From positions 1 to 44,140 of the forward strand of contig JAEOTA010000067.1 of assembly GCA_016840085.1 (NCBI GenBank): a stretch of 44,140 nt of DNA, written 5' to 3'. The position numbers and the translations under genes are program-made. Within the stretch, counting starts at the first letter, position 1. Each line of letters begins with the position of its first letter. The notes under the pieces are model-generated. The model did no database searches, had not been told where the DNA came from, and was given only the letters and a program-made list of their open reading frames with translations. Positions 12,115-37,073 of the stretch are shown piece after piece. Origin of the DNA: Promethearchaeota archaeon. GTDB lineage: Archaea > Asgardarchaeota > Lokiarchaeia > Sigyniarchaeales > SOKP01.

Positions 12115-12891
12115 ATGCCGAGAAAAGGAAGAAAAGCACCAGATAGAGAACCCCATCCCCTTGATGTATATAGTGCTTGGGATCTTCGTTATGCAAAAAT
12201 AATTTATTATGGTCTCATACTTGCCACTATAATTGTAGTATTAGGAGTATGGGGAGTAATTATAGGACTTATAATACCAGGAGGCGCCTGGGAGGCCTTT
12301 TTAGAACTTGATCTTGGATATCAGATAGCTATCATTGCTGGAGCAATTACAGGACACTTATTCTTATTAGTTCTATTTTATACAATTTTCCGTGGAGGAA
12401 TGGTGCGTTTATGTCAATTTATGTTTAAAGATCGAGCAATAGCAAATAAGTGGCAAGACTACTACGGGTTACGAATGCTTATAGGAATAGCTCTGATGGG
12501 TCTATATATCACAATTATAAGTCTTATTATCGGTTTGCTCCCAACCACATTTCTTAGACTTGTAAGAAATGTTTGGGATTGGATGGTAGATAATTTTTCA
12601 CCCGGTATGTGGATTATGTGGGTTGGGTTAGATCTTTTTATAATAGTTGCTATCATCTTTTTAGGTTTTGTTATTTGGAATCATGGAGTTTTCTGGGTTC
12701 TGAGACATGTTAAAGAAATAGAAGAAGAAATTAAAATTGATGAAAGTATTAAAAAAGAAGCTATCCAAAGTGCCGATGAAAGAACACTTAGGGCTATTTA
12801 TAAAAAAGAAATAGGGCAAAAAGCGATTTACAGAGGTAAAGAAACCAATGGATATATCGAGTGGAAAAAAGAACAAGGTGTAAAAAAATAA
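12115..12891 (+). CDS. Four-TM membrane protein with a cytoplasmic C-terminal tail
   Basis: 258 aa, four hydrophobic helices in two similar halves; tail YKKEIGQKAIYRGKETNGYIEWKK. Confidence 0.75.
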   Translation: MPRKGRKAPDREPHPLDVYSAWDLRYAKIIYYGLILATIIVVLGVWGVIIGLIIPGGAWEAFLELDLGYQIAIIAGAITGHLFLLVLFYTIFRGGMVRLCQFMFKDRAIANKWQDYYGLRMLIGIALMGLYITIISLIIGLLPTTFLRLVRNVWDWMVDNFSPGMWIMWVGLDLFIIVAIIFLGFVIWNHGVFWVLRHVKEIEEEIKIDESIKKEAIQSADERTLRAIYKKEIGQKAIYRGKETNGYIEWKKEQGVKK

Positions 12892-12937
12892 ATCTTTAAA
12901 AAATGAAAAAGTAATTTTTAAAATTTTTTTTTATTTC

Positions 12938-13870
12938 TTATCTTCTCATCATTCTTGGATTTCTAAACAACGTTAGTTCTTGTCTAGGCATTTTGTAATC
13001 TGTTGTTGCTGTCTTTCTCATCTTTTTGTATAATTTTTTAATCATCTTTTCTGCGCCTCTCATAAAATTACAAATACATCCAAAAAGTATCATATAGAGT
13101 ACAAAAGTTTTATCTTTTGCATAAGTTTCATCCGCAATCTGAATCTCAAAATTTTTTTGCACTCTTTGTCCGTCTACTCGAGCTATTTTTTGCTGACCAA
13201 TATAAATCCAATAGTTTCTTCCCGGTCCTATGATTCCTTTAGCATGAGCTATTTGAAGTTTATCATCCTTCTGTTCTGGAAGAAGTGGCCAAGTCCAACG
13301 TGTCCCCATTAATCTCCAACCTCTTACAACACGAGCTAGATAAATCATTCTCGGTACTTGCATAAAAAATACAGGAGCAGGATGTTTAATTTCATAACTC
13401 TGGACTAGTGAGTGGGCAACACTTAATTCAAGACCCCCTTTGAAATTACCTCCTTTAGGTTGGGCATCCATCGTTTCCTCCATTATTGTAAAAATACGGC
13501 ATGATAGACGTCTTTCTACAAGTGGTTTTTCTTCCCAGTCCTCCTTATTAAAAGCAATAATATATTTTTTCTCGCCATCAACTTCTACTAGTCCTTCAAT
13601 ATCAAAATTTTTGGAAAACCAGCGCGTTTTAGCTTGATATTTAAGTTGTTGGTGTATTCCTAACTCCTCATCATGTAAACGTGTTCGCCAAAAGTTAACT
13701 TTCAACTTTTTATATACTGCTTTCTTTGGTGGTATGGGTTTTTCAGGAGTAGCTGGTTCTTTAGAAGGTTTTTTTACCTTTTTTTTTGCGGGAGTTGCTC
13801 TTGATTTTGCTCTAGGTTTAGCTTTTTTTGCCGCTTCTTCTAATTCTTCTACTGGATCTTCTTCTGACAT
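12938..13870 (-). CDS. Putative Tubby-C/LURP-one/scramblase-like beta-barrel protein with a disordered basic N-terminus
   Basis: Many beta-strands ending GRNYWIYIGQQKIARVDGQRVQKNFEIQI, followed by the hydrophobic helix DKTFVLYMILFGCICNF; K/P/A-rich N-terminal 50 aa. Confidence 0.5.
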   Translation of the reverse strand: MSEEDPVEELEEAAKKAKPRAKSRATPAKKKVKKPSKEPATPEKPIPPKKAVYKKLKVNFWRTRLHDEELGIHQQLKYQAKTRWFSKNFDIEGLVEVDGEKKYIIAFNKEDWEEKPLVERRLSCRIFTIMEETMDAQPKGGNFKGGLELSVAHSLVQSYEIKHPAPVFFMQVPRMIYLARVVRGWRLMGTRWTWPLLPEQKDDKLQIAHAKGIIGPGRNYWIYIGQQKIARVDGQRVQKNFEIQIADETYAKDKTFVLYMILFGCICNFMRGAEKMIKKLYKKMRKTATTDYKMPRQELTLFRNPRMMRR

Positions 13871-14096: not shown

Positions 14097-17000
14097 TTAT
14101 CTCTGAATTTCTTGATGTAGTTTCTCTATAAACGCATTAAAATCTTCCTTATCAAATTTTACATTTAAAAGATGACCCAAAATGGGGGGAATATGCTCCT
14201 CTTTTATATAGACCGGAATCAATTTCAATAATTCTTTTTTCCTTCTTTGAAAGGCCGCTTGCCATTCGTCTTTAACAGCGGCAGATTTTACGGAATGTTC
14301 ACTACAGAATAAAACAAACACATTACATTTTTGTAGCGTTTCATCCATGAATTCTACGATATTTTGTTTGCTATCTGCTTCCCAAAATAATACTCTGTCT
14401 ATGTCTGGATAATCTTCCAATCTTCTTACAATTCTTGGCATATCGAAATATTCTGAATCTCTTGTAGAATAACTTAAAAATATGTTAAATTCTTTTAATT
14501 CATCTGGTTTTAATTTAGAAATTGTTTCTATTTCTGGAACATCTAAATCTTCTCGTGCTAATCTAGAAACACCCTTTCCAATATTTATTTCCTTCCATTT
14601 ATTATAAGTTTGAATCAATTCATCAATTTGATCTATATTTCTTTGTTGTTCAAATGCAATTGCTTTAGAACTCGCAAAATAATCACCAAAAATTTCTTTT
14701 TGCTGAATCATGTCTTGAAATACTGAAATAATTAACTCTTCATCCTCTATTCCAGATTTATCACTAATATCCGCAATTTCTAATCTGTGAAATTTAGTGC
14801 CTAAATCTAAAACAGTCTTTTTTATTTTACTAATCATCTCTAAATATAGATTATTACAATAATTTATACTTTTTTCACATGCTGCTGTGATATCGACTAA
14901 GCTATATCTTTTAGATAAATCTTTTACTTCCTTCAGTTTTTTAATAGCTTCTTTTATTTTTCTCTCTTTTATTAGGTGATCAACAAACGATAAGCATTCT
15001 TGGAGTTTATTTTCGATTTTAACTTTCTTTTTTCCATATACTTTTATTTCTTTTCCATGCTTGGGAATAAATATTCTTTTCCTCAAAATTATCGTGGTAC
15101 TTATACTGGCTATACTAATAATGCCAACAATTATACTCACTAAAACTATTATTAAATAATCTGATTCAGTTATAATTTTATTTCCTATGAATAAATTTCC
15201 TTGACTATCTTCAAGTACCCATTTTTTATTATTTTTCATGAAAATATTATTAATAATAGAATTATAGTTAGACTTGTTGAAGTATGTTCCAATTTGGTTA
15301 TATCCTATGAAGTTTCCTCTAATGCTGTTATTATGACTTGAGAATAAATAAATACCATTAAACGTGTTATAGTTTGTGGTGCTATTAAATACATTTCCAT
15401 TTGAAACATGTTCTAATTTTAGTCCCGCATCATCAATTCCTCCACTTGAATTAGAAAAAACACAGTTACTAATATTAAAAAACACACTTGAATTCCTAAT
15501 TACAAGACAACTACTAGCACGTTGACCATTAATTTCTATAAACTCGATAACGTATGGATCACTCTCAATACCGGACCCGCTACACCAAGGTTGAGTTACA
15601 ACTTCTTCCCATGTATAATCTCCCTGTCCTGAATCATCAATTACTAGGGGTGTTAAAATCCAAAATCCAGATACAATATTTATTTTTACATTATTTGAAA
15701 TTGTAAAACCAATATCATTGTAAGCCACAACAACAAAATAGTATTCTCCAGTTTTCAATCCAGAGATCGAATACGGTGATATGGCATTGTTATCTATACG
15801 AGTAGTATATCTTTTGCTAATATATGTGATAGGGATTCCTGAATAATATATAGAATATCTATCTGCTTTAACAGAGTCAGTCCAACTTAGATCGAAAGAA
15901 CCATCCTTATCAGGATCATCAGCTTGACTTGTTAATGTAAAATTTCCTGGTAAATTATGTGAATTATCTCCTACAAGATCATTGATACCCCAATATGGAA
16001 TTGATATTGTTCCGGTTGCGATGGAATTAGGATAAATAGTATTATTTGATGGGAGTATTTCTTTATTGCCATCCATTTGCCATTGACAGAATAATGCATT
16101 ACTATAAGACATCCCCTCTACTAAATCATGAGACATTGTAAACGCAATATTCCAACTAGCACCTGTAAATGGATTATTAATATCATTATTCTCCAATGTA
16201 GAAACAATGGTATTTGATTCGAAAGATTGAGCTTCAACAGCCGCATCTACTAATAATCTAACCGCATCATAAGAACCTATTCCTGTATAATATGGTTCTA
16301 CTCCATTTTCTTCAAAAAAGTTATTCCAAAATGGAATTGTCAGTGAAGTTTTCGATGTATTATAGACATATTGCATTGTAATTTCATATTGAGAGTGTCC
16401 AGTAGTTTGATCCCAATATTTATCAGATTGAGCAAGAGTATTAATACCCGTTAGTAAATATTTAGGTTTCAATAATCCATATTGTTGACCTACATATATG
16501 CCACGCTGTCCAGAGATAAGAGGGATGACTATTTGAGCTTCGGTAGCGTCCAATTCAGCTAAATAAGCACTTATATCTTGTGATGTTGCAGTTATATCAA
16601 AAGCAATATCTTGAATTATCGTGTAACTTGGATTTAATGAAGGAAGAACAGCAGTTAATGCATTTGCGAGAGAATCAGTCCAAGCTAAATCTTCCCGGAG
16701 AATAGCAAATTTAGTTAATTCTCCCCCATATTTTTCGGATAAATTAATCGCAAGAAAATTGAGGTAGGATGAAAGTTCTTTTACTAATGATGTTGTATTA
16801 ATCGGCATTACTCTGAAAAAATATTTATAATGCGAATAATCAGATATTACATTTTGACATAAGTGGTCTGTTGGGCAACCAGTACAAATAAAAGGAATTT
16901 GAGCGTTCATAATAACCTCTTGATACGCCATTATCGATTCAGTACGATAACCACCTATAATAAAATGAGGATCATGAACATCAACCATTTTCAGTGCAGC

Positions 17001-17387
17001 GGCGACACCTTTAGGAATATCTAAGTTGGGATTAGCCTCATCAGTATCTTCTGCTACAAGTCCAATATAATACTGATCCCCATCAATTGAGACCTCTCCT
17101 GCCTTATTAATCTCTCTTGCTGCTAAAATTGCTCCCTTCCAAGCATGATCTCCAGTAATATCATTCATATCACCAAGAATTCCAATTTTAAGTATCTGAC
17201 TTGTTGGAATTGATCCTGAGACACCTGGGACCGTATAACTTCCTACAGTTATATCAGATAAAACAATTTTACTTTTAGTATCCTCATTGCTATCTTGGTC
17301 ATTTAAATTAACTTTTTTTATTTGTATCAAGAAGCTGGTGGATAATAGAAAAATAGAAAGATATAAAAAAATATTTTTGTACTTCAT
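14097..17387 (-). CDS. Single-pass receptor-like protein: signal/anchor + LivK-type (PBP1) solute-binding domain + FN3 + NosD/CASH beta-helix + TM + PCI/winged helix + TIR domain
   Basis: LKIGILGDM..GAILAAREINKAG, IIGGYRTE, YFFRVMP, GSYDAVRLL (PBP1); FDLSWTDSVKADRYSIY..GLKTGEYYFVVVAYN (FN3); GSGIESDPYVI and GIYLFSSHNNSIRGN (beta-helix); TM YLIIVLVSIIVGIISIASISTTIIL-RKR; KKTVLDLGTKFHRLEIADISDK..MIQQKEIFGDY (PCI); IFLSYSTRD..CNVFVLFCSEHSVKSAAVKDEWQAA..LIPVY (TIR). Confidence 0.88.
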   Translation of the reverse strand: MKYKNIFLYLSIFLLSTSFLIQIKKVNLNDQDSNEDTKSKIVLSDITVGSYTVPGVSGSIPTSQILKIGILGDMNDITGDHAWKGAILAAREINKAGEVSIDGDQYYIGLVAEDTDEANPNLDIPKGVAAALKMVDVHDPHFIIGGYRTESIMAYQEVIMNAQIPFICTGCPTDHLCQNVISDYSHYKYFFRVMPINTTSLVKELSSYLNFLAINLSEKYGGELTKFAILREDLAWTDSLANALTAVLPSLNPSYTIIQDIAFDITATSQDISAYLAELDATEAQIVIPLISGQRGIYVGQQYGLLKPKYLLTGINTLAQSDKYWDQTTGHSQYEITMQYVYNTSKTSLTIPFWNNFFEENGVEPYYTGIGSYDAVRLLVDAAVEAQSFESNTIVSTLENNDINNPFTGASWNIAFTMSHDLVEGMSYSNALFCQWQMDGNKEILPSNNTIYPNSIATGTISIPYWGINDLVGDNSHNLPGNFTLTSQADDPDKDGSFDLSWTDSVKADRYSIYYSGIPITYISKRYTTRIDNNAISPYSISGLKTGEYYFVVVAYNDIGFTISNNVKINIVSGFWILTPLVIDDSGQGDYTWEEVVTQPWCSGSGIESDPYVIEFIEINGQRASSCLVIRNSSVFFNISNCVFSNSSGGIDDAGLKLEHVSNGNVFNSTTNYNTFNGIYLFSSHNNSIRGNFIGYNQIGTYFNKSNYNSIINNIFMKNNKKWVLEDSQGNLFIGNKIITESDYLIIVLVSIIVGIISIASISTTIILRKRIFIPKHGKEIKVYGKKKVKIENKLQECLSFVDHLIKERKIKEAIKKLKEVKDLSKRYSLVDITAACEKSINYCNNLYLEMISKIKKTVLDLGTKFHRLEIADISDKSGIEDEELIISVFQDMIQQKEIFGDYFASSKAIAFEQQRNIDQIDELIQTYNKWKEINIGKGVSRLAREDLDVPEIETISKLKPDELKEFNIFLSYSTRDSEYFDMPRIVRRLEDYPDIDRVLFWEADSKQNIVEFMDETLQKCNVFVLFCSEHSVKSAAVKDEWQAAFQRRKKELLKLIPVYIKEEHIPPILGHLLNVKFDKEDFNAFIEKLHQEIQR

Positions 17388-17590: not shown

Positions 17591-19738
17591 TTAAATTTTT
17601 TTTTTAGGTTTTAAATATCTTTTGAACAATATAAGAGAACCTATCGAGAAGGCACTTATAATTATCCATAAATCGTATCCAGAGATAATTTTATCCACTT
17701 TATCAATTTCTGAAATTTCAATTGAAACAACAACATTATTTGATAAAGTTTTACCTTTTTCGTTATCAGCAACAACAATATAATTATACTCGCCATCCAA
17801 TGATTCATTTATTAAAAATGGAGACATTGCTGTTTGATATGCAATCTCAGTAAGGCTGTTGTTTATTTCCGCAATATAACTGGTATATTTATATATCGAA
17901 TAATTATCTGCTCCAGAAGAATCTGTCCAACTTAAATTAAAAACGCCATCGGTGTCTGGATCATCAGCATCAGTTGTTAATACAAAATCTCCTGGAGGAG
18001 GGATTTGAACAGAAACGTTAATATTATTAGAGAATGTTTGACCAGTTTCATTATAAGCCACAATAGTGAAATAATATGCTCCTGTTCTCAATCCAGAAAT
18101 AGGAACTGTGGAATTTACATCTTGCTTAGCTATTAAAGTATGTTTTTTACTTACATATGTAATACTTTCATTAGACATATATAAAGAATAATTATCCACT
18201 CCAACAGAACTAGTCCAACTTATATCAAAAGCACCATCGGTATCGGGATCATCAGCATTACTTGATAATACAAAATCTCCAGGTAATTGATGAGAGTAAT
18301 CCGCAACTAGATTATTAATACCCCAATAAGGTATTGATAATGTACCTGTTGCGAGTATATCAGGATAAATTGAACCCCATGAAGGAAGCACTACTTTTTT
18401 TCCATCCATTTGCCACTGACAAAATAATGAAGTTCCAAATGGCCAACCCTCTTGTAAATCGTGAGAGTTTGTGAAAGCAAGTTTACCAGCAACCCCTATA
18501 AAAGGATTGGAGGTATTAATCTTTTCCAAATTTGCTACGATTGTATCAGGTTTGAAAGATTGAGTTTCAATAGACGCGTTTACTAACAGTCTAACAGCAT
18601 CATAAGATCCTGTTCCAATATAATAAGGCTCATTGCCATACTCTCCAATAAATTTATTCCAAAATGGTATTGTAAGGGTAGTTTTTGATGTATTGTGTAA
18701 ACCTTGCATCGTTATTTCGTATCGACAAGTTCCCGCAGTGTCGTCCCAATATGTATCAATTTGAGAAAGAACATTAATACCTGCAAGTAAGTACCGCGGT
18801 TGAATTAGTGCATATTGTTGGTTCATTATGATTCCAGGACCAGCAGGGGCTTGTCCTCCTGAAATAATTGGAATTACTATTTGAGCACCAGCAGAATCAA
18901 GAGAACTTAAATGAATACCCATTTCTGTCGCTGTTAGACCAACTGAAAATGCAATATCATCTACAATAGAGATGTTTGGATTTGAAGTTGGCAATAGTGT
19001 CTTTAAATCATTTGCGATTGGTATTGTCCATGGATAATCTTCACGAAGAATACCTATTTTAATTGTTGGAGCTTCATAAGTATTGTTTAAATAATCAGTA
19101 AGAGATAAATGATAATCTACTAATTCATTAGTAAGGGATGTACTATTAAGTGGCGATACCCTAAAGAAATATTTATATCTCGCATAATTAGTTAATACAT
19201 TTTGACTAAGACCATCAAATGAACACCCAGTACCAATAAAAGGTATTTTAGCGTCCATTATAACTTCTTGATAGGCAAGTATAGCTTCGGTACGAAAGCC
19301 ACCAGTAATAAAATAAGGATCATGATCGTTTATCATTATATTAGCTGCGGTTACCCCTTTTGACGTCTGCAGTATTGGATTTGCTTCCTCAGTATCTTCA
19401 GATACAAGACCTACATAAAATATGCTACTATTAATAAGAACTCCACCAGCTTCATTTATTTCTCTCGCTGCTAAAAGCGCTCCCTTCCAAGCGTGATCAC
19501 CTGAAATGTGGTTCATATCATCAAGAATTCCAATTTTAATTACTTGACTTAATGATATAGATCCAGATACTCCTGGAACCGTATAATTCCCTACTGTTAT
19601 GTCAGATAATTCTGGATTAGTACTTATAGCTTCATAGACATCTTTTTCCTTAAAAATCGCGTTGCTACATAGAAAAAGTATTGAAGATTGAAATATAAAT
19701 ATAAAAAGTAAAATTAACTGCTTATTTTTGTTTTTCAT
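17591..19738 (-). CDS. Surface-anchored LivK-type (PBP1) solute-binding protein with two FN3 domains and a C-terminal TM sorting anchor
   Basis: Ectodomain closely similar to the 14097 ORF; two FN3 repeats (ADDPDTDG.F.lSW); C-terminal IISGYDLWIIISAFSIGSLILF-KRYLKPKKKI; ATG at 19738 preferred over TTG at 19774. Confidence 0.85.
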   Translation of the reverse strand: MKNKNKQLILLFIFIFQSSILFLCSNAIFKEKDVYEAISTNPELSDITVGNYTVPGVSGSISLSQVIKIGILDDMNHISGDHAWKGALLAAREINEAGGVLINSSIFYVGLVSEDTEEANPILQTSKGVTAANIMINDHDPYFITGGFRTEAILAYQEVIMDAKIPFIGTGCSFDGLSQNVLTNYARYKYFFRVSPLNSTSLTNELVDYHLSLTDYLNNTYEAPTIKIGILREDYPWTIPIANDLKTLLPTSNPNISIVDDIAFSVGLTATEMGIHLSSLDSAGAQIVIPIISGGQAPAGPGIIMNQQYALIQPRYLLAGINVLSQIDTYWDDTAGTCRYEITMQGLHNTSKTTLTIPFWNKFIGEYGNEPYYIGTGSYDAVRLLVNASIETQSFKPDTIVANLEKINTSNPFIGVAGKLAFTNSHDLQEGWPFGTSLFCQWQMDGKKVVLPSWGSIYPDILATGTLSIPYWGINNLVADYSHQLPGDFVLSSNADDPDTDGAFDISWTSSVGVDNYSLYMSNESITYVSKKHTLIAKQDVNSTVPISGLRTGAYYFTIVAYNETGQTFSNNINVSVQIPPPGDFVLTTDADDPDTDGVFNLSWTDSSGADNYSIYKYTSYIAEINNSLTEIAYQTAMSPFLINESLDGEYNYIVVADNEKGKTLSNNVVVSIEISEIDKVDKIISGYDLWIIISAFSIGSLILFKRYLKPKKKI

Positions 19739-19913: not shown

Positions 19914-22900
19914 TTAAAACCTAACCTCGCATCTATCAGAATCGCAGAATTTCTCGCCTATTGCTCTATCTCGTGTCTCATCTAAGTTGAATAGTTTAAG
20001 TTTGCTCATCATTATTTCATACTGCTCTTTAGTAATCTCCTCATAAGGTGCCTGTTTATACCCGTGTTCTTTTATTGGTAAGAAGCTCACACTCTTTAGC
20101 TTATCTTCATAACATTCAAGAACATGTTTGATTTGATTTGATTCCTCCTCTCTGAATGTGATTGTTATTGAAACTTGGTTATCAGACCAATATTTTTGAT
20201 ATGCTGCGGCATTTTCAGCTTGTTCCCAAATAGAGACTTCGTTTTTAGAGCGATCGAAATATTTCTCATGAATTGGGAACTCTGCAACTACAGTATTAGG
20301 CGAATATAAATCATCTTCAATCTTATAGCCAGCATTTTTTATAGGTTCAATTAAATCAGAATTTTTTGAGAGTCTGATTCGTCTTATATAATATTCTGAA
20401 TGAGGATAATGAATTCCAGGAGGAACACCTGGTAGAAGACTTACAGTCCCACTGGGTTTAACTGTGGTTATTTTTATAGATTTTGGAACACATAACCAAT
20501 CAGAATATGTTTCGTCTAACTCTCTTAGATAATTGTATCCTCGATCACTCCATTCTAGTATTGTTCTTCTTCCACGCTTTACAAAAGCTTCGATTATACC
20601 CGTCTGTGAAATTCCCATCCTTCGATTTTTTAACATAACAGCATTAGTTTCTTTCCAATGAGTATTGACTAATGTAACAGATTTTGAATATAAATAAGCA
20701 TACTTTAATGTATCTTGAAATTCTTCATAGGATTCATGTCTTGAGGGAAAAGTTTCAACGAGACAACAAAGTTCAAAGGATTCCAATGTCTGTTCTCCAC
20801 AATTCACAGTAAATATTATTTCTAATTTTGGTCTATCTGTTCTGGTTTTCTTTTCATTAAGTACTATTCCGTAATTGTGGTAGTTATCTACAGTGCCGTT
20901 ATACACATCTGCATTACCAATATAAACAACTGAAACAATTTTGTGGTTGCTGCATAACCCATTCGACATGAGTTGAGTAGCCATTTCACTGCGATATGGT
21001 TTTTTATGAAGTGAACGGACAGAAATCTTATTATTGGTATATCTTTTAGTAATCATATCTAGAATATATTGATAACCCCTGTAGATTCCTGCAGTTCTAA
21101 AATCATTAATACCATTTTTTTTGAGATATGTTAAAAAATCGTTTAATATAGGAATTTCATTATTATCACACACATATTCTTCAAATAATTCAACAAGTCG
21201 TTTTTGTGCAATTTTTCTTTGATTTTTACCTTTTTCTTTCATGGCTGCTCCTGCTTTTAAAGCAGAAATTTTGTTTGAGCAGGTCTGAGAACAGTAAGCT
21301 CTTTCCCTTTCTCTATACTTTACATGAAATTTAGCACCGCATAACTCACAGTATTTTACAAGCCAGATACCGTCATTAAAGATAAGCTCAAAATCACTTT
21401 CTTTTAATAGTTTAATATATTTTTTATATTCTCTCATTAATGCTGGATTTTCAAAGTGCTCAAATCCACTTTCAATGTTAGCTTTCTTAATTAGGTTGAC
21501 CAACTTTCCTCTAAATTCATCAAAGTTATGAATATATCCATGTTTTCTTGAATATTCACTCCAAGATGTAGTAGTTAAAGGAATTCCAGTTTTTTTGATT
21601 ACCGAAAGCATTTCTTTATATAATTCTTGATTTGTAAAACCAGAATATCGAGGATTATTTTCTCTTGCTGTTGCTTTAGACATTCTTTCATGATATTGCT
21701 TTTTTTCTTCTGAACTTGCATAGGGATACCAAAATCGCATGGGATTATTGTCTCCAGAAATATCATGGAGCGAATCATGTTTATCTTTTAGTAAAAGTTC
21801 GAGATTATAGATATTATTATTCAAACTATTATTATCCTTATGGTGAAGGACATATCCTGGTTCGATTTTAGTTTTATTTAATTTTTCATAAGTGAGCGTG
21901 TGTTCAAATATATTTTTTCTTCCATTATTTAATAACCAATATGGTGATTTCTTCTTATTATCTTCACTCATTATCTCTGACCAAGTAGTTTGCCACTTTG
22001 GTGTAACCATTATACTATCGTTGGATTTTAAGTCACTCGCAGATTTAAGTGAACCATTTTTCATTAAAAATTTATGATTACTGGTACATTTGATACTACT
22101 CCCGTCATCAAGATTTACTTCATATATTCTCTCGTTGAAACCTGTGATTCGAGGATTTCTCATCATGCTGATTGTTGTAATTCCTTTATCATTCTTACAA
22201 TAGACCGGGACATCTAAACCTTCCTCAGCTAATTGTTTAATAGAAATGGCGTTTCTTCCATCGACTACAGCAATTAGTGTATCACCTGTAATACAAGGAT
22301 TGACACCTGCTGCTTTTTTATCTTTATAGTTTGGTGGATCTCCCATCCTTCCATAATCTTTCGCATTTTCCAACCAAAAAACACCAGGTTCTCCATTTAC
22401 CGCAATTTGATTAGCTATAAACGAGTAGTCTAGACCTTTAACCGCAAAAACAGAATTATTACTTGCCCATCTATGGGAATATAGTGCTTCTTCATCTTGC
22501 TTACATGTGACAAAATCTAAATCTGTGGGATCACCTAAGGCGATTTCAGCTGAGCGTCTCACATTGCCGGCCACAACACATTTACCAATGTGATTCATGA
22601 TATCGACAATGTCAATAGAGGTAATTTTTTGTCCAATTTTTGCTTTTAAAATGGTTTGAATATCTTCCAACATACTTTTAAGTGGTCCTGGACCAGAAGC
22701 TATTCCTCCAAATCCTCTAATAGGCTCACCTGCGAGTCTAATCTCTGAAAAATCATAATTTGGCACCTGTTTCCCAAGGAAATATGCTTCCAATATTATT
22801 TTTAATGATTCAACCCACCCTTCTCTACTATCATGAATTTGGAAATCAAAATGACCTTCTTTAGGTTTTTTAATAGTTATCTTGTCTGCGCCTTTTGTAT

Positions 22901-23651
22901 CAAAACCCACTCCTACGCCAAGCATTAAAGCATCCATCACAAATTCAAATGCTTTTGAATATTTTAGGTTAATATCTTCGGTAGATGCGAAACCACAGTT
23001 GTTTAAAGACATAGAACCATGACGCGCAATAAATTCTGTTCCCATCATCCATAGTCCTCGACCTGGTGGTGAAAACTTGAAGTTCCAAATTTTATCAAAC
23101 ATGGTTTGAGCCGATTTTTGAGCTTTCTTATCACTCCAAGGAAGACTTAACTTCATACAATGCTCTTTTTGAATTGAATAACAACCTTCCACAACTCGCC
23201 TAATTGTTTCCCAAAAATCTTCTTTTCTGTTTTCACCTTCAATTATTCTAGCATATGTTCTTTTATATGTAATATATCCCAAAGGACCCCAGTCTGGTTG
23301 CTTTCCCTTATATTTGTTAATAAATTCTTCATCAAGTTTGAATCCAATACTTTCCAAATTAATAGCTCTCGCAAACAGATTTCTATATTTATTTAATCCG
23401 CGTTGAGTCAATTCAACACATACTAATTCCCTAATGTAATTTGTAGTAATTTCATCTATTCCAAGGCCAATTATTTTTCGAATGGCATCCTCAGCTACTT
23501 TCTCGGCAATGTGCATATCCAAGCCGGTTTCTTTGTTTAAAATTTTAGCTATGCTATTTTCATCGAACTTTTTCTTTTCACCTTTGGAATTAATGACATA
23601 CTTTGGATACAAATCTATTAACGAGAATGAATTATCAGTCATGTTACTCAT
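19914..23651 (-). CDS. nrdJ: Class II (adenosylcobalamin-dependent) ribonucleotide reductase, RTPR-like, with N-terminal ATP-cone and an intein
   Basis: VINSKGEKKKFDENSI (ATP cone), YKRTYAR, PPGRGLWMMG, LNNC, VVAGNVRRSA, NP|C..N|CGEQTL, TTVKPSGTVS, C-terminal CDSDRC. Confidence 0.93.
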   Translation of the reverse strand: MSNMTDNSFSLIDLYPKYVINSKGEKKKFDENSIAKILNKETGLDMHIAEKVAEDAIRKIIGLGIDEITTNYIRELVCVELTQRGLNKYRNLFARAINLESIGFKLDEEFINKYKGKQPDWGPLGYITYKRTYARIIEGENRKEDFWETIRRVVEGCYSIQKEHCMKLSLPWSDKKAQKSAQTMFDKIWNFKFSPPGRGLWMMGTEFIARHGSMSLNNCGFASTEDINLKYSKAFEFVMDALMLGVGVGFDTKGADKITIKKPKEGHFDFQIHDSREGWVESLKIILEAYFLGKQVPNYDFSEIRLAGEPIRGFGGIASGPGPLKSMLEDIQTILKAKIGQKITSIDIVDIMNHIGKCVVAGNVRRSAEIALGDPTDLDFVTCKQDEEALYSHRWASNNSVFAVKGLDYSFIANQIAVNGEPGVFWLENAKDYGRMGDPPNYKDKKAAGVNPCITGDTLIAVVDGRNAISIKQLAEEGLDVPVYCKNDKGITTISMMRNPRITGFNERIYEVNLDDGSSIKCTSNHKFLMKNGSLKSASDLKSNDSIMVTPKWQTTWSEIMSEDNKKKSPYWLLNNGRKNIFEHTLTYEKLNKTKIEPGYVLHHKDNNSLNNNIYNLELLLKDKHDSLHDISGDNNPMRFWYPYASSEEKKQYHERMSKATARENNPRYSGFTNQELYKEMLSVIKKTGIPLTTTSWSEYSRKHGYIHNFDEFRGKLVNLIKKANIESGFEHFENPALMREYKKYIKLLKESDFELIFNDGIWLVKYCELCGAKFHVKYRERERAYCSQTCSNKISALKAGAAMKEKGKNQRKIAQKRLVELFEEYVCDNNEIPILNDFLTYLKKNGINDFRTAGIYRGYQYILDMITKRYTNNKISVRSLHKKPYRSEMATQLMSNGLCSNHKIVSVVYIGNADVYNGTVDNYHNYGIVLNEKKTRTDRPKLEIIFTVNCGEQTLESFELCCLVETFPSRHESYEEFQDTLKYAYLYSKSVTLVNTHWKETNAVMLKNRRMGISQTGIIEAFVKRGRRTILEWSDRGYNYLRELDETYSDWLCVPKSIKITTVKPSGTVSLLPGVPPGIHYPHSEYYIRRIRLSKNSDLIEPIKNAGYKIEDDLYSPNTVVAEFPIHEKYFDRSKNEVSIWEQAENAAAYQKYWSDNQVSITITFREEESNQIKHVLECYEDKLKSVSFLPIKEHGYKQAPYEEITKEQYEIMMSKLKLFNLDETRDRAIGEKFCDSDRCEVRF
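20802..22295 (-). mobile_element. 498-aa intein with HNH homing endonuclease, inserted in the NrdJ NPCGE active-site motif
   Basis: Starts CITGDTLIAV (Cys453); block B IKCTSNHKFL; HNH HHKDNNSLNNNIYNLELL..HDSLH; Zn finger CELCG..YCSQTC; block F VYNGTVDNYHNY; ends IIFTVN before +1 Cys. Confidence 0.92.
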
Positions 23652-24173: not shown

Positions 24174-25064
24174 GTGATTAGAAAATTGGTAGTAAATAAT
24201 ACAGATCAACAACAAAACAGTCAAAATTCAGAGATAATTAAAGAAGAAATTAATTTACAATTTCATTGGTATATGCTAGCTTTTTTTATTATATATTTAG
24301 GGTCATTTTTGCTCCCTGGTGTTATTTTTATGAGTTATATAATGTTATTTTATTTACCCTATTTTTTAGAAACAAAAGATTTCATATTGCTTTTTACAGA
24401 ATTGCAACCCTTGCTCGCTTCGATTCTTATGCCCTTTATTATAGTAATCTGTTACTTAGTACATTTAATTTTAGTTGGATTAATTACGAGATGGTTATGG
24501 GGAATAACTGAGAAAAAATCTCCCTCTAAATCAGGTACTATCCCAAGAAATATCCCAAGTAAGACTTTAAATTATTATCATATTCGTAGTTTTATGATTA
24601 AATACCCGCGCAACGCAGTAAATCGAGGTCTCTTCCCTTGGTTAATTAAATGGCTTTATAATTTTGTTAAAACAAACAAAATAGGGAAAGGTACTATATT
24701 AGAAGAAAATATAGGGGCTGATAGATTTATACAAATAGGAGAAAATTCTTATTTTGGTCAGAAAGGAGCTATTAGCTCTCACGCGGTTGAAGGAATTTTT
24801 GGAAATATTTCGTATGAGAAAATAAAGATTGGAAATAATGTTACCGCCGCAACGTTTAATTGTATAGCTCCAGGAGTCAAAATTGGAAATAATTCAACAT
24901 TATTACCTATGACCGGAGCTACTAAACATAATATTTTGAAAGGAAATAATTATTATTTTGGTGCTCCGTTAAGAAAAATTTTTAAAAAAAGATTAATGGA
25001 ATATTTAAATATTACTGAAGAAGACTTAGAACGAGCAGAAAAGCTTTATAATAAACAAGAATAG
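24174..25064 (+). CDS. Membrane-bound left-handed beta-helix (hexapeptide) acyltransferase-like protein, type A
   Basis: Two N-terminal TMs, SPSKSGTIPRNIPS, IGKGT, IGENSYFG, ISSHAVEG, IGNNV, IAPGVKIG, YFGAP. Confidence 0.8.
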   Translation: MIRKLVVNNTDQQQNSQNSEIIKEEINLQFHWYMLAFFIIYLGSFLLPGVIFMSYIMLFYLPYFLETKDFILLFTELQPLLASILMPFIIVICYLVHLILVGLITRWLWGITEKKSPSKSGTIPRNIPSKTLNYYHIRSFMIKYPRNAVNRGLFPWLIKWLYNFVKTNKIGKGTILEENIGADRFIQIGENSYFGQKGAISSHAVEGIFGNISYEKIKIGNNVTAATFNCIAPGVKIGNNSTLLPMTGATKHNILKGNNYYFGAPLRKIFKKRLMEYLNITEEDLERAEKLYNKQE

Positions 25065-25115
25065 GAAGTAAAATTATAGTATAAAATCTAATAAATTGTA
25101 AAAAATCAAAAAACA

Positions 25116-26012
25116 ATGGAAAAAAATATTCAAATTGAAGAAGATGCTTTATCTGAGTTTAAAGCAGATTATACAATTGATTTTGTTACAAGTAGTGCAG
25201 TAAGTAAAATTAGTCTTAAATTTCTAATTTTTTACATACCTATTTTATGGTTTTCTGGTTACATGGCTGTTGCTGTTTTCTTTGATATTTCAAGTTTAAT
25301 AAATAATTGGATCATTACCATGTTACTCCTACCGATATGGTTATTTATGTTATATTTTATTTTTATTTTTGGAATAGCGATTTTTACAAAAGCATTTGTC
25401 CTTATAATTAATATGATACATAAACCGAGAGAAGGTGTGTTTAGAGCAGAAGAAGGGGATAAGGATTTTGAATTTTGGAGGCTCCGTGTAGAATTAAAAA
25501 AACTTGCAATATGGTTCATGAATAATGGCCCTTTACCTTGGATTGTAATGTGGGGTTTTCGTTGGTTTAATATTCATATTGACTTTACAAGCCATCTACA
25601 AGATGCGTGGGTTGATACAGATTTTATTAAATTTGGAAGAAAGGTAACTGTAGGGCAGGGAACTGTTGTAATGAGTTCAATGATTATTGGTAATTATTTA
25701 ATTATCAAGAAAATAGTTTTTGATGATTATACTGTTGTAGGGGGTGCATCAAATATCTCTCCTGGCACTATTATGGGAAAAGAATCAGTCTCAGGAGCTT
25801 TTTCCTATACTAATTACAACCAAAAATTAGATCCAGGTTGGATTTATATTGGACTACCAGCTCGAAAATATAAGCCAAATAAATATGCAGAAGAACGTAG
25901 AGATAGAATCTATAAACATGATGTAGATGAAGAAGTAAAATATGAAGTTACACAGGAAATAAATATTGATGAAGATAAAAAAAATCTTTTAAATAATAAT
26001 AAAGAGGTTTAG
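25116..26012 (+). CDS. Membrane-bound left-handed beta-helix acyltransferase-like protein, type B
   Basis: IDFVTSSAVS, two TMs, HKPREGVF..DFEFW, FGRKVTVGQG, ISPGTIMG, WIYIGLPA. Confidence 0.8.
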   Translation: MEKNIQIEEDALSEFKADYTIDFVTSSAVSKISLKFLIFYIPILWFSGYMAVAVFFDISSLINNWIITMLLLPIWLFMLYFIFIFGIAIFTKAFVLIINMIHKPREGVFRAEEGDKDFEFWRLRVELKKLAIWFMNNGPLPWIVMWGFRWFNIHIDFTSHLQDAWVDTDFIKFGRKVTVGQGTVVMSSMIIGNYLIIKKIVFDDYTVVGGASNISPGTIMGKESVSGAFSYTNYNQKLDPGWIYIGLPARKYKPNKYAEERRDRIYKHDVDEEVKYEVTQEINIDEDKKNLLNNNKEV

Positions 26013-26017
26013 TAGAG

Positions 26018-26869
26018 ATGTCAGTGCCTGCAAATATAAAAGCTGGACCGTTCACGACCCTTGTTTTATTAAAGAAAAGATACTTAATATTTTACATTTA
26101 TCTCATTTGGATAACTTTATTTACAATTCAATTCGAATTTTGGTTGTATTGGATTCTTCTTTATGATTGGAAATATATTCACTTCTTAATATTCCTTCCC
26201 CTTTTGATATTTGTAATGTATATCTCATCTGTTATAATCTCATTGATCTTTGCAAAAGTATTACTAATTATTGTAAACTTATTTCATAAACCTCGTGAAG
26301 GTGTGTTTTTAAGACATATTTCAGATAAGGATTATAGATATTGGTGTATTAGAAGTGTTATTAAAAAATGGCCACTATGGTTAGCGCATAAATTTCCTTT
26401 CCCTTTTCTAGATAATATATGTTTTAAAGCTTTTGGGGTAAAGACTAAATTTTCGAATTCGCTCTTTGAGGGATGGGTGGATACTGAATTTATTGAATTT
26501 GGAAAAAATGTGGTAATAGGGCAAGCAAGTGTTATTCAATCAGCAGTTATAATAGGTAATCTCTTAATTATACGAAAGACAATAATAGAAGAGAATGCTC
26601 GTGTAGGTGCACATTCAATTGTTATGCCTGGCAGTCATATTAGTAAAAATTGTATATTAGCAGGCACTTCTCTCACCACAATAGGGCAAAATTTAGAAGA
26701 GGGATGGATTTATTTAGGCTCTCCAGCAAAAAAGTTGAAAAGGAATTTATTTTTTGAAGATAATTTAGAAGAAATTTTAGATCGCCAAGATATTGATGAT
26801 GAAGTTTTACTCAAAAAATACGAGAGTCTCTACACTAAGAGGAAAGATAAAGAAATTAGCAAACAATAA
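26018..26869 (+). CDS. Membrane-bound left-handed beta-helix acyltransferase-like protein, type C
   Basis: MSVP..GPF, two TMs, HKPREGVF..DKDYRYW, HKFPFPFLDN, FGKNVVIGQ, VMPGSHI, WIYLGSPA. Confidence 0.8.
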   Translation: MSVPANIKAGPFTTLVLLKKRYLIFYIYLIWITLFTIQFEFWLYWILLYDWKYIHFLIFLPLLIFVMYISSVIISLIFAKVLLIIVNLFHKPREGVFLRHISDKDYRYWCIRSVIKKWPLWLAHKFPFPFLDNICFKAFGVKTKFSNSLFEGWVDTEFIEFGKNVVIGQASVIQSAVIIGNLLIIRKTIIEENARVGAHSIVMPGSHISKNCILAGTSLTTIGQNLEEGWIYLGSPAKKLKRNLFFEDNLEEILDRQDIDDEVLLKKYESLYTKRKDKEISKQ

Positions 26870-28407: not shown

Positions 28408-29226
28408 TTATTCAGGCTGTAATATCCCTGAAAAAGCCAACCATGCTAATAATGATTTTGCTACTAAACTTAGTATTATATATACTCGTTCACCGAAAAG
28501 ATAATCTTTCCATGGTCCCACTGCTTTATATTGAAGTATCATATTAATCGCAAATGAATTGAATAGAATCAGATATGTATAAAATATCCAGTACACAAAA
28601 TCAGGGATACCCTCAGCAGCTACACCATAAAAGTAGCCAAGAATAACTATCCAAGGAATAGCACCAGATATACATCCTATTATGAAAGGCTTCCAATTAG
28701 TTTTTTCCGTATATTGATTAACTAATTCCATCATGTAACCAAACATTATCATCATAGCATTCAATACAAAAATCATGACTAATGACCAGAAATCCCAGAC
28801 ACCAAAAAGTAATGAGAGAAATACAATCATAACTGAACTAGAAAAAGCATACTCGTACCAACGATAGGGATTAAAACCTTTCTTTAGATTATTATTGTAT
28901 CTTTCATTCAATGGATATGCAATTAAAAAATGAGCTAAAGCAGACATTAATAAAAATGAAGCAAGCACAGCCCCAAAGTATGAAACTGTAAATAATACCT
29001 CTGGATTTGGAAATATATTAAATGTATCAGGATCAATAAATTCATAAGACAAATAAAATGTATAAATATCTCTAGAAAAATCTAAAATAAGTCCTACAGT
29101 CAACATTAATATTCCTTGTATTAAATGAAGGATTCCCATGTTTCTGTTAAATTTTTGTAAGTATTCGAATGTAATATCTGATTTCGCGATAATTTCTTGT
29201 CGTTCTTTATAATTCATTTTAACCAT
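28408..29226 (-). CDS. Heliorhodopsin
   Basis: Seven TMs; ILHLIQG, SALAHF, NPYRWYEYAFSSSVM (counterion Glu), YLFGERVYIILSLVAKSLLAW (retinal-binding Lys). Confidence 0.95.
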   Translation of the reverse strand: MVKMNYKERQEIIAKSDITFEYLQKFNRNMGILHLIQGILMLTVGLILDFSRDIYTFYLSYEFIDPDTFNIFPNPEVLFTVSYFGAVLASFLLMSALAHFLIAYPLNERYNNNLKKGFNPYRWYEYAFSSSVMIVFLSLLFGVWDFWSLVMIFVLNAMMIMFGYMMELVNQYTEKTNWKPFIIGCISGAIPWIVILGYFYGVAAEGIPDFVYWIFYTYLILFNSFAINMILQYKAVGPWKDYLFGERVYIILSLVAKSLLAWLAFSGILQPE

Positions 29227-33682: not shown

Positions 33683-33713
33683 AAAAGAGATCTTATCAAA
33701 AAACTATCATATT

Positions 33714-34109
33714 TTATTCTGTATTCAATTGAAATTCTGTCTTTAAGAAACTCTTTAACTTTTGACAGGTTTTCTTTAATTCTTGCTTATCTTGATAAAA
33801 AAGGTTAGTTCTAGGACAATCTTTATCAAAAACGCATTTTTTCTGAATAAAATCATAAATTAAAGGATAAAATCTGCATCCTTGAGGGCGATATTGATAA
33901 ACTTTACACGTCTTAGACATAAAATCTAAAAATACACAATATTTTGAATCATTTTTTAGTTGATAAAATTGATTTTGATTTTTAAATACAAAATCTTTCA
34001 TTTTTAATTTCTTAGGGAAATTATCTATTATTAAATCAATATCTTGTTGAGATACAATCATTTCTGTCCGGATACAACATTCTCCGCAATTTTGACAATT
34101 GTTTTCCAT
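33714..34109 (-). CDS. YkgJ/CxxCxxCC family Fe-S or Zn cluster protein
   Basis: CQNCGECC, YCVFLD..CKVYQYRPQGCRFYP, C..DKDCP. Confidence 0.88.
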   Translation of the reverse strand: MENNCQNCGECCIRTEMIVSQQDIDLIIDNFPKKLKMKDFVFKNQNQFYQLKNDSKYCVFLDFMSKTCKVYQYRPQGCRFYPLIYDFIQKKCVFDKDCPRTNLFYQDKQELKKTCQKLKSFLKTEFQLNTE

Positions 34110-34242
34110 AGTAAATTATTATTTTTGCTTAAATCTCATAAATTTTAAAGGAAGGAAAATATCTATTAAAATATAATAAACATCAATTGCTTTTTAATTA
34201 AGTAAAAATTACATAAATTTGAATTAAGAATTTAATGCAAAA

Positions 34243-36126: not shown

Positions 36127-36131
36127 AGATT

Positions 36132-37073
36132 ATGAGTGTTCCAAATACAATGAGAGTTGGACCATTTATCTCACAAGTATTAGTGAAAAAGAGATATTTG
36201 ATTTTTTATTTTTTATTAATTTGGATAAGTATAATTCCATTACTTTTGGAATTTTGGGTTTATTGGAGGTTATTATGGGATTATGATAGACCAGTTCATT
36301 TTTATACCTTTCTTCCACTTCTCTTTTTTGGAATGTATGTATCTATCGTATTTTTTTCAATTTTTTTTGCAAAAATCTTACTATTTATTATTAATGCAAT
36401 ACATAAACCTCGAGAAGGCATATTCCTACGAATTCCAGAAGATAAGGATTATAGATACTGGAGTCTTCGCAATACCATTAAACGATGGCCAATATGGCTT
36501 GCTCATAAATTTCCTTTTCCTTTCTTAGATAATATCTGCTTTAAAGCTTTTGGTGTTAAAACGAAATTTTCGAACTCACTCTTTGAAGGATGGGTTGATA
36601 CTGAATTTATAGAATTTGGTAAGGATGTTGTGGTAGGACAAGGTGCTATTGTTCAATCTGCAGTAATAATTGGGAATTTACTGATAATTAGAAAAACAGT
36701 TATTGAAGATAATGTAAGAATAGGCTCTCATGCAATTGTTATGCCAGGTACTCATATAGGTAAAAATTCAATATTAGCAGCAAATTCAGTAACTACTGTA
36801 GGGCAAATCTTAGAAAAAAAATGGGTGTATGTTGGGATTCCCGCAAAACAATTCAAGAAAAATTATTTCTTTGAAGATGGATTGGAGGATAAGATAGGAC
36901 AAGTTGAAGATGTAGAAGCACTAAGAGAAAAATATGAGGAGATTTATACAAAGCGTTATGATGAGCTAACTCTAAAAGAACGTAGAGAACTTAAAAAAGA
37001 AAAGAAAGAAGAAGAAAAGAAACGATTAGAATCTGAGGAATATGACATTTTTGATGACGGTTTTAATATATAA
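36132..37073 (+). CDS. Membrane-bound left-handed beta-helix protein, type C (cluster 3)
   Basis: Paralog of the 26018 ORF; long identical block WLAHKFPFPFLDNICFKAFGVKTKFSNSLFEGWVDTEFIEFGK. Confidence 0.82.
   Translation: MSVPNTMRVGPFISQVLVKKRYLIFYFLLIWISIIPLLLEFWVYWRLLWDYDRPVHFYTFLPLLFFGMYVSIVFFSIFFAKILLFIINAIHKPREGIFLRIPEDKDYRYWSLRNTIKRWPIWLAHKFPFPFLDNICFKAFGVKTKFSNSLFEGWVDTEFIEFGKDVVVGQGAIVQSAVIIGNLLIIRKTVIEDNVRIGSHAIVMPGTHIGKNSILAANSVTTVGQILEKKWVYVGIPAKQFKKNYFFEDGLEDKIGQVEDVEALREKYEEIYTKRYDELTLKERRELKKEKKEEEKKRLESEEYDIFDDGFNI

Follow-up and report, generated by a model that had tools for sequence, protein, structure and literature searches.

The prokaryotic TIR enzymes described in the literature that we consulted respond to infection signals within the cell. 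A contig of a Promethearchaeota archaeon of the Lokiarchaeia raises the question whether a TIR domain may also be gated by a ligand outside the cell. Within its 44,140 nucleotides (the window, meaning the whole stretch of DNA that was analysed) lies a gene that joins a Venus-flytrap binding domain, through a predicted membrane helix, to a C-terminal TIR domain. A sequence-only reading had described the product as a Toll-like receptor that converts binding of an amino acid or other small molecule into NAD+ cleavage or a cyclic-ADPR-type signal. In the literature searched, which included Asgard and defence papers and left most subscription papers beyond reach, no description of such a PBP1-TM-TIR receptor was found for any prokaryote.

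Architecture and integrity of the receptor gene

The receptor is encoded on the minus strand (14097–17387) by an open reading frame of 1096 amino acids with an ATG start and zero internal stops. Pfam profiles, homology, hydropathy and structure matches confirmed the domain order read from the sequence. The protein begins with a signal peptide or signal anchor (aa 1–23; 17319–17387; hydropathy 1.79), whose basic N-terminus and hydrophobic core are kept in relatives. This is followed by a type I periplasmic-binding (PBP1; Venus flytrap, Liv/HAAT-like) domain (aa 64–470; 15978–17198), assigned by Pfam, Foldseek and a structure model, with Peripla_BP_6 (PF13458) matching aa 67–409 (E = 7.9e-19; 68.9 bits against a cut-off of 31.7). 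The stalk comprises an FN3/Ig-like unit (aa 480–573; 15669–15950), which has no Pfam match and was recognised by phmmer through homology to repeats in nine other proteins of the genome, and a membrane-adjacent, NosD-type right-handed beta-helix (aa 576–742; 15162–15662; PF13229, E = 9.8e-7; PF05048, E = 1.2e-6). Relatives carry one to five copies of the FN3-like unit; within the beta-helix, the Pfam matches over cut-off are Beta_helix at aa 627–742 and NosD at aa 637–733. Pfam found no LRR match in this ectodomain, which consists of PBP1, FN3 and beta-helix instead. The TM helix (aa 745–767; Kyte–Doolittle 2.86) and its basic stop-transfer motif RKR (769–771) span 15075–15155. The cytoplasmic part contains a helical pair (aa 790–848; 14844–15020), visible as helices in the structure model and repeated up to five times in 4-TM relatives, a PCI-like winged helix (aa 850–922; 14622–14840) and the TIR domain (aa 966–1096; 14100–14492; PF13676, E = 9.3e-17).

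The receptor itself has no Pfam match to PCI (PF01399); 15 of 20 aligned relatives do (best E = 1.2e-4), and the model of the cytoplasmic tail matched COP9 signalosome chain C entries with a Foldseek probability of 1.0. Together with the secondary structure, these matches reveal the PCI hallmark, helical repeats followed by a winged helix. A survey for the same architecture yielded 17 other proteins that fuse PBP1 to TIR, giving a family of 18, only three of which contain the PCI-like unit. This unit, presented earlier as part of the effector, is thus optional, and we rejected it as an obligatory hub.

In its mosaic make-up, with a PBP nearest to tail-less proteins and a tail nearest to that of a non-PBP receptor, the protein looks as an assembly chimera of separate genes might. 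We rejected this explanation, which retains next to no likelihood: each of four runs of a single study, possibly the source, yields a unitig that covers the whole reading frame with 0 mismatches, the PBP1-TIR fusion recurs in the 17 other proteins, and an orthologue in another genome (P0002) shows the complete domain order at this locus.

Membrane topology

The receptor carries 11 N-glycosylation sequons before the TM helix and none after it. Across the 18 family members, sequons account for 493 of 1688 Asn on the ectodomain side versus 1 of 199 on the cytoplasmic side. This split supports a topology with the PBP outside and the TIR inside the cell, and argues against the two lying on the same side of the membrane. 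Lys and Arg residues flanking the TM helix number eight after and one before, a bias found in 18/18 members. There is only one strong internal TM helix, the N-terminal hydrophobic stretch being weaker (1.79 vs 2.86), and the receptor is predicted to be single-pass.

The TIR domain

The C-terminal domain matches TIR in both profiles and structures. TIR_2 (PF13676) covers aa 969–1090 with 62.1 bits against a cut-off of 28. In a Foldseek search with the structure model, the top match was the SPARTA TIR-APAZ protein (8qlp; E = 1.3e-4), with MyD88 and TLR2 TIRs at ranks 2, 3 and 6; the probability was 1.0 for SPARTA, MyD88, TLR2 and AbTir. Single-sequence searches of TIR and PBP against solved structures gave nothing useful and profiles were used, by which the closest solved TIRs are the TIR-TPR protein 9m0n and the CRISPR effector Cat1. 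As first noted from the sequence, the domain keeps a catalytic-position glutamate in its SAAVKDEW motif (14262–14285). This residue, Glu1041 (14265–14267), occupies the helix αC position at which 9m0n and Cat1 also have Glu, and is conserved in 158 of 159 TIRs of the clade; the Trp at E+1 is invariant. With dN/dS values of 0.061 and 0.041, compared with 0.23 for the PBP, the TIR is the most constrained domain and is, by this measure, under strong purifying selection. The proposal of an NADase thus gains from the conserved Glu and the low dN/dS; however, Glu alone is no proof, as TLR2 and the tested TIR adaptors are without NADase activity, and non-catalytic TIR assembly is established.

At E-4, where cyclase TIRs have Trp, the receptor has Ala1037 (14277–14279). 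The 159 clade TIRs have Ala (124), Ser (31), Lys (2), Asp (1) or Thr (1) at this position, and neither Trp nor any other aromatic residue in a single case. The cyclase TIRs surveyed by Manik et al. are all aromatic at E-4, and the Trp of the WxxxE motif is needed for cyclisation (10.1101/2022.05.07.491051). Mutation of this Trp to Ala lowers the activity of AbTir and SARM1 and abolishes that of L6 and ROQ1 (10.1101/2022.05.07.491051), so the archaeal TIR could be weak or inactive. The SPARTA TIR-APAZ protein has Gly at the Trp position and is an active NADase that makes linear ADPR (10.1101/2023.07.14.549122). Because Trp is absent in 159/159, linear ADPR, NAD+ depletion or scaffolding appears likelier than the cyclic-ADPR-type signal suggested earlier, and the natural, clade-wide loss of this Trp makes linear ADPR a clear prediction. 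Modelling of the cytoplasmic module as a dimer with NAD scored 0.00, and we draw nothing from it.

The binding domain and its ligand

The PBP was modelled with a pLDDT of 94.5, and its top Foldseek matches were 8wch (E = 2e-21), 4zpj, 4gnr, 4q6b and 4evq. Prokaryotic PBPs score above eukaryotic ones; GABA-B ectodomains reach a TM-score of about 0.6. Conserved residues include Arg148, Asn197 and Trp236, and pocket residues are shared with a transporter binding protein. In E. coli LivJ/LivK, the conserved Ser79 and Thr102 bind the α-carboxyl and α-amino groups of the ligand. In HMM alignments to 4gnr and 3ip5, the positions matching this Ser and Thr are Thr149 and Pro172 in the receptor; they vary among 20 receptors (N9/T4/Y3 and A10/S7/P2, respectively), leaving an amino-acid ligand unsupported. 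The PBP of the genome's Liv operon (contig C19, 254570–255961) is related and shares Arg148, and its gene adjoins an AMP-binding enzyme (acyl-CoA ligase type) and an acyl-CoA dehydrogenase. From the gene neighbours of this distant paralogue only, we infer a small organic solute as ligand and favour a carboxylic acid over an α-amino acid. The PBP dN/dS of 0.23 gave no domain-wide sign of positive selection.

The genomic neighbourhood

Upstream on the minus strand lies a tandem paralogue (17591–19738; PF13458) with the order PBP1-FN3-FN3, a Loki-CTERM-like anchor and no cytoplasmic domain. It measures 715 amino acids from its ATG (the ORF finder gives 727 from a TTG at 19774), and its PBP is 58% identical to that of the receptor. 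Its Loki-CTERM score of 18.6 bits is just under the cut-off of 19.9; the syntenic protein of another genome (G009) scores 27.2. The paralogue could be a decoy, a co-receptor or a plain binding protein.

No Liv permease or ABC ATPase genes were found on the receptor contig, as had been noted in favour of signalling over transport. The absence is real, but the argument is weak, because the fetched loci of relatives in which tail-less PBP1-FN3-Loki-CTERM proteins occupy this position likewise contain no Liv genes, and because the genome has its Liv operon elsewhere, with its only Liv permease pair on contig C19 and four PBPs of the receptor's subfamily. The neighbours of the receptor are housekeeping genes, such as ribonucleotide reductase and a radical SAM tRNA-modification enzyme, and PADLOC found no match for the receptor tail or its neighbours. 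A promoter and terminator scan with a bacterial model stayed at chance level. Several receptor arrays adjoin a 526-aa gene, which we rejected as a partner: being present in 23/24 other genomes of the genus, it only marks the insertion site.

A modular receptor family

About 59 homologous PBPs lack any TIR, and most of them end in a membrane anchor. Fusion of PBP1 to TIR appears in three separate places on the PBP tree, a quick tree, and entails at least five changes on the TIR tree, built from 130 columns; sensing domains were thus joined to this TIR repeatedly. The ectodomain is swappable: one relative, whose DNA at the same locus is 91.7% identical over 9.3 kb, has a 95% identical TIR and, in place of PBP1, a family-5 binding domain fused in frame. 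The same TIR clade occurs with other ectodomains (beta-helix only, 4-TM, LRR) and includes LRR-PCI-TIR and 4TM-TIR proteins; LRR-PCI proteins adjoin receptors in four genomes. The clade was found in 29 of 135 genomes of the family, in one to eight copies and in tandem arrays, with frequent stops both in receptors and in the SLOG partner described below. The studied genome, 98.8% complete, has four TIR_2 matches, all receptor-type, with no soluble adaptor of the MyD88/MAL type among them; two of its four receptors have damaged 5' ends.

The TIR clade hardly occurs outside a single Lokiarchaeia family, and the PBP, nearest to prokaryotic binding proteins, was recruited locally from Loki-CTERM surface proteins. 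We therefore rejected shared descent with eukaryotic TLRs or class C GPCRs: the likeness to TLR, mGluR and GABA-B reflects shared folds and convergence rather than kinship. So narrow a distribution makes the family informative about convergence with eukaryotic receptors rather than about how these arose.

A candidate SLOG partner

A protein with the order RelA/SpoT-like-TPR-SLOG(LSDAT)-longin-like tracks the TIR receptors in relatives and is a candidate partner. Counted among kin, which overstates the support, its close form occurs in 15/135 genomes of the family; all 15 are TIR-positive, in 11 it lies no more than about 7 kb from a TIR gene, and 14 of the 29 TIR-positive genomes are missing it. 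SLOG domains are known to sense ADPR derivatives (PMC9503650); the candidate has no SIR2 domain. Searches did not find it in the studied genome, from which it appears to have been deleted, so the studied receptor copy may be orphaned. The partner is present in GCA_964435435.1, and an intact copy is available in a close relative. Atlas matches for a longin-like tail (0.86) and for an adaptin-appendage-like domain (0.76) are leads only.

Proposed mechanism and alternatives

We propose, with a rough probability of 45%, that the protein is a ligand-gated, outside-in TIR receptor of a modular Lokiarchaeia family that hydrolyses NAD+. PBP1 would close on a small organic solute, rather a carboxylic acid than an α-amino acid, and closure, passed on through the FN3/beta-helix stalk, would cluster or reorient receptors such that their TIRs assemble. 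The assembled TIRs would split NAD+ into nicotinamide and linear ADP-ribose, as SPARTA does, and in most relatives the co-inherited SLOG protein would read the product. In the studied genome, the outcome could be an NAD+ drain, detection by another reader, or a recently orphaned receptor. A broader and more speculative proposal is that a receptor-type TIR signalling pathway without an immune role evolved independently in one Lokiarchaeia family. Interchangeable extracellular sensors (PBP1, family-5 binding protein, beta-helix, 4-TM) would inform a non-cyclising TIR across the membrane of the chemical surroundings, and its linear ADP-ribose would be detected by a SLOG protein of the TRPM type, whose output is longin-like. 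Such a pathway would be a prokaryotic analogue, reached by convergence, of Toll-like and Venus-flytrap receptors and would use ADPR as second messenger.

Alternatively, the TIR could act as a non-enzymatic, TLR-like scaffold, ligand-induced clustering nucleating TIR-TIR or PCI-PCI assemblies without any nucleotide being made. Partners, cytoplasmic or in the membrane, could be proteins such as LRR-PCI-TIR and 4TM-PCI-TIR, which belong to the same clade; LRR-PCI proteins are found next to receptors. The absent E-4 Trp, whose loss kills some TIR NADases, the MyD88 and TLR2 matches and the precedent of assembly without catalysis all fit. We nevertheless consider a scaffold unlikely: a diffusible product better explains the tight linkage to a SLOG nucleotide-sensor protein, and a soluble TIR adaptor is absent among the genome's TIR_2 matches.

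A role in defence is also doubtful. Here the ectodomain, a copy of a virus-used surface protein or a danger-metabolite sensor, would serve as bait or sensor for viruses or competitors, and the TIR would drain NAD+ to cause dormancy or abortive infection. No PADLOC model fits the cytoplasmic part, the housekeeping neighbours do not form a defence island, the PBP has no domain-wide sign of positive selection, and its pocket is conserved with a transporter protein. Against this stand the patchy distribution, variable copy number, tandem arrays, ectodomain exchange and stops, which are typical of conflict systems, the closeness of the TIR sequence to 9m0n and Cat1, and a TIR and SLOG pairing that recalls Thoeris.

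It is improbable that the protein is a binding protein which scavenges nutrients for the distant Liv transporter and whose TIR is a passenger or a decaying relic. Selection constrains the TIR more tightly than the PBP, the PBP1-TIR fusion arose repeatedly, and the same TIR is joined to non-transport ectodomains, although the many anchored PBPs without TIR, the presence of one Liv permease pair and four PBPs of this subfamily, the lost SLOG partner and the broken sister receptors would suit such a role. Least credible among the functional readings is a TIR that makes a cADPR-type second messenger: the catalytic-position Glu is kept, characterised SLOG sensors bind cyclic ADPR isomers, and the invariant E+1 Trp might conceivably substitute for the E-4 Trp, yet the surveyed cyclases are without exception aromatic at a position where this clade never is.

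Comparison with known systems

If true, the outside-in receptor proposed here, which couples a solute-binding domain to a TIR, would extend TIR signalling to sensing of the exterior, possibly beyond immunity. It would offer a transmembrane signalling route in Lokiarchaeia, syntrophs that need to sense partners and nutrients.

With Toll-like and IL-1 receptors, the protein shares a type I topology (ectodomain, one TM helix, C-terminal cytoplasmic TIR) and the TIR fold of TLR2 and MyD88. Its ectodomain is PBP1-FN3-beta-helix, whereas theirs is LRR or Ig; it also differs in the extra helical pair and PCI-like unit, the SLOG linkage and the want of a soluble adaptor in the genome. The restriction to one archaeal family marks the likeness as convergent. 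Class C GPCRs (mGluR, GABA-B) and natriuretic-peptide receptors likewise couple a Venus-flytrap ectodomain across the membrane to a signal; they differ by 7-TM, kinase-homology or cyclase domains not present here. The archaeal receptor resembles the natriuretic-peptide receptors in its single-pass receptor-enzyme logic.

SPARTA TIR-APAZ has the catalytic Glu and no E-4 Trp in common with the receptor, and makes linear ADPR on oligomerisation. It is soluble and triggered by nucleic acid, whereas the receptor has no Argonaute or APAZ and its input would be extracellular. In Thoeris (ThsB TIR and ThsA SIR2-SLOG), as in relatives of the studied archaeon, a TIR gene is linked to a SLOG-bearing protein. 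The ThsB sensor is small and soluble and makes cyclic ADPR isomers, whereas the TIR here is membrane-bound and without the cyclase Trp; its RelA/SpoT-like partner has no SIR2 and was not found in the studied genome. The ThsB_TIR profile (PF08937) scored 18.2, below its cut-off of 21.2, without a PADLOC match.

The Liv/HAAT binding proteins (LivJ/LivK, SAR11_0655, RPA0668) have the same type I PBP fold, with a TM-score of about 0.7. The receptor differs from them in its sequence (13–19% identity), its stalk and cytoplasmic TIR, its variable LivJ contacts and the absence of a nearby permease; a related binding protein heads the genome's own Liv operon.

Domain architecture and membrane topology

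The receptor ORF (14097-17387, reverse strand) encodes 1096 aa. Pfam searches placed a type I periplasmic-binding domain (PBP1) at aa 67-409 (E 7.9e-19), a NosD/beta-helix at aa 627-742 and a TIR_2 domain at aa 969-1090 (E 9.3e-17), all over the cut-off. An FN3-like unit (aa 480-573) recurs in nine further proteins of the genome, and the sole strong hydrophobic helix (aa 745-767) is followed by RKR. The PBP model was confident (pLDDT 94.5) and was matched best by prokaryotic binding proteins (8wch, 4zpj, 4gnr, 4q6b, 4evq), with GABA-B ectodomains ranking below them. In the cytoplasmic model (pLDDT 77), the TIR matched those of SPARTA, MyD88, TLR2 and AbTir, and the helical/winged-helix part matched chain C of the COP9 signalosome; Pfam PCI was matched by 15 of 20 relatives. 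The domain anatomy proposed in the sequence-only reading is thus borne out.

PBP1, transmembrane helix (TM) and TIR are joined in 18 proteins, one of them a paralogue within the same genome. In this set, N-x-S/T sequons take in 493 of the 1688 asparagines on the N-terminal side of the TM, where composition predicts 278, versus 1 of 199 on the C-terminal side, where it predicts 17; the receptor itself carries 11 sequons before the TM and none after. Promethearchaeum syntrophicum has been shown to N-glycosylate one of its extracellular solute-binding proteins at such sequons (PMC11284389). Together, the skew and this precedent place the PBP outside the cell and the TIR in the cytoplasm, on opposite sides of the membrane as had been proposed.

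Candidate ligands

An amino-acid ligand, suggested earlier, loses ground: the receptor positions aligned to the ligand-contacting Ser and Thr of LivJ are variable. Arg148, Asn197 and Trp236 are common to receptor PBPs, to tail-less PBPs (PBP1-FN3-anchor proteins lacking a TIR) and to the transporter PBP on contig C19. This contig holds the only Liv permease pair of the genome, together with genes for that related PBP, for an AMP-binding enzyme and for an acyl-CoA dehydrogenase. A carboxylic acid headed for CoA activation would be our low-confidence guess.

TIR chemistry and proposed mechanism

Glu1041 is conserved in 158 of the 159 aligned members of the TIR clade, and the TIR has the lowest dN/dS of all receptor domains (0.061 and 0.041 in two comparisons). 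SPARTA has Gly four residues before the Glu (E-4), yet is an active NADase producing linear ADPR (10.1101/2023.07.14.549122). In our preferred reading (probability roughly 0.45), ligand binding by the PBP would cluster the receptor, the TIR would hydrolyse NAD+ to linear ADPR, and a SLOG protein, where present, would read this product. Established here are topology, conservation, modularity and linkage; the rest of the scheme, from ligand and clustering to catalysis and read-out, is inferred.

The conserved Glu fits the proposed NADase activity, but TLR2 and TIR adaptors have no such activity (PMC9153377), and TIR fold and topology are therefore no proof of catalysis. A non-enzymatic scaffold is a minority alternative, and a defence sensor that drains NAD+ is about equally improbable. 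That the protein is a binding protein with a passenger TIR seems less likely still, given the low dN/dS of that domain. The receptor resembles SPARTA or Thoeris in likely chemistry, but fails membership tests for Thoeris.

The cyclic-ADPR-type signal, also suggested earlier, is very improbable. Every cyclase TIR is reported by Manik et al. (10.1101/2022.05.07.491051) to have an aromatic residue at E-4, and the closest solved TIRs by sequence also have one (Trp), whereas the receptor has Ala and the clade mostly Ala (124) or Ser (31), with an aromatic residue in 0 of 159. In the same study, AbTir W204A shifted its product to ADPR with lowered activity, and L6 W131A and ROQ1 W82A lost activity. 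This leaves linear ADPR, NAD+ drain or an absence of catalysis as candidate outcomes. The receptor is TLR-like in topology, but failed membership tests for TLRs, as it did for cyclase TIRs and ABC transport units; its likeness to TLRs and class C GPCRs would reflect convergence on shared folds.

Distribution, and apparent loss of a SLOG partner

The host genome (4.68 Mb, 29.5% GC, 98.8% complete) occurs in marine sediment runs, and receptor homologues carry the label Promethearchaeota. Among 135 genomes of the family, 29 encode the TIR clade, with between 1 and 8 copies per genome; a phylum-wide draw gave 14 of 54 further family genomes versus 1 of 196 outside, which makes the clade a lineage-specific innovation. 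We found no published description of these receptors in the literature searched, whose coverage was limited.

Mapping gene neighbours at 24 loci revealed a partner of ~860 aa, with RelA/SpoT-like, TPR and LSDAT-type SLOG domains and possibly a longin-like tail (a lead only), whose gene adjoins receptor genes. The close form of the partner was found in 15 of the 135 genomes; all 15 are TIR-positive against the background of 29/135, a co-occurrence to be read as linkage and not as a significance test, since related genomes are not independent. It lies within ~7 kb of a TIR gene in 11 cases and carries an internal stop in five. A more distant form, which lacks the tail, was seen in 11 genomes, just one of which is TIR-positive; it keeps the synthetase motifs, which look degenerate in the close form.

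Repeated searches of the host genome did not find the partner gene. At its syntenic site, the genes on either side lie contiguously on contig C37, and the spacer that separates TIR gene and partner in relatives persists (G000:C37:1690-1950) with both genes missing. This makes a deletion likelier than an assembly gap, the remnant probably being the deletion scar; the close relative GCA_964435435.1 has an intact partner copy. Two of the four host receptors have damaged 5' ends: one paralogue (G000:C49:139510-142803) has neither an in-frame start nor a signal peptide, and another (G000:C82:61824-62729) has lost most of its ectodomain. The window's receptor gene is intact but may be orphaned.

Gene integrity, modularity and ectodomain exchange

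An assembly artefact can be set aside: unitigs from four runs (all of one study, and possibly the source DNA) cover the whole ORF with 0 mismatches each, the orthologue P0002 has the same architecture at the same locus of another genome, and the 18 PBP1-TM-TIR proteins repeat the fusion.

The same TIR clade is joined to beta-helix-only, family-5 binding protein, 4-TM and cytoplasmic LRR-PCI inputs. PCI occurs in only 3 of 18 PBP1-TIR proteins and is therefore ruled out as the general clustering hub. A quick PBP tree puts the TIR-fused PBPs at three places and makes tail-less PBP-FN3-anchor proteins the sister group of the receptor and its orthologue; the TIR tree requires at least five changes of the PBP1 label. 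The receptor locus of three relatives (G009, G014, G016) encodes tail-less PBP and beta-helix proteins only, and in one of these proteins a Loki-CTERM anchor exceeds the cut-off. GCA_964435435.1 is 91.7% identical to the window across 9.3 kb from the beta-helix downstream (TIR 95% identical); upstream lies a family-5 binding domain in the same frame, with one TAA between. Close relatives thus exchange ectodomains at this site.

A second, independent PBP1-TIR fusion of ~1830 aa (L041:4132-9627, G004:C128; L042:7103-12595, G013:C18) combines a family-5 binding domain, a beta-helix, PBP1 and a TM with an outer-clade TIR that likewise lacks the Trp, followed by an extra C-terminal domain. Soluble LRR-PCI-TIR proteins (L025:6526-7959, L035:9888-11339), with a TIR of the same clade, are possibly the receptors' cytoplasmic counterpart. 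Cytoplasmic LRR-PCI proteins of ~720 aa are encoded convergently to receptor genes in four genomes (L028:12288-14441, L024:6940-9105, L032:7158-9341, L053:931-3090); for the C-terminal part of these proteins, adaptin appendage domains were a weak Atlas lead (score 0.76). Among the best profile matches, P0092-P0096, P0188 and P0203 have two to four tandem Trp-less TIRs each. A tandem array of four PBP1 genes (L051:5768-15890, G023:C7), with FN3 insertions and one PBP duplication, contains no TIR or permease genes.

Other genes of the window

The receptor locus is flanked, in every relative examined, by two conserved genes (12115-13870; 258 and 310 aa) that belong to no known family. A B12-dependent ribonucleotide reductase (19914-23651, reverse strand) contains an intein with an HNH endonuclease inside, where relative G024 is missing ~1.5 kb. 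A heliorhodopsin (PF18761, E 4e-94) lies at 28408-29226 (reverse strand). On the forward strand, two clusters (24174-26869 and 31871-37073) hold six ORFs for paralogous membrane proteins with hexapeptide (left-handed beta-helix) repeats, two being internal duplications, and an LRR-only protein of 348 aa (38346-39392), kin to the N-terminal part of LRR-PCI proteins, ends before the PCI.
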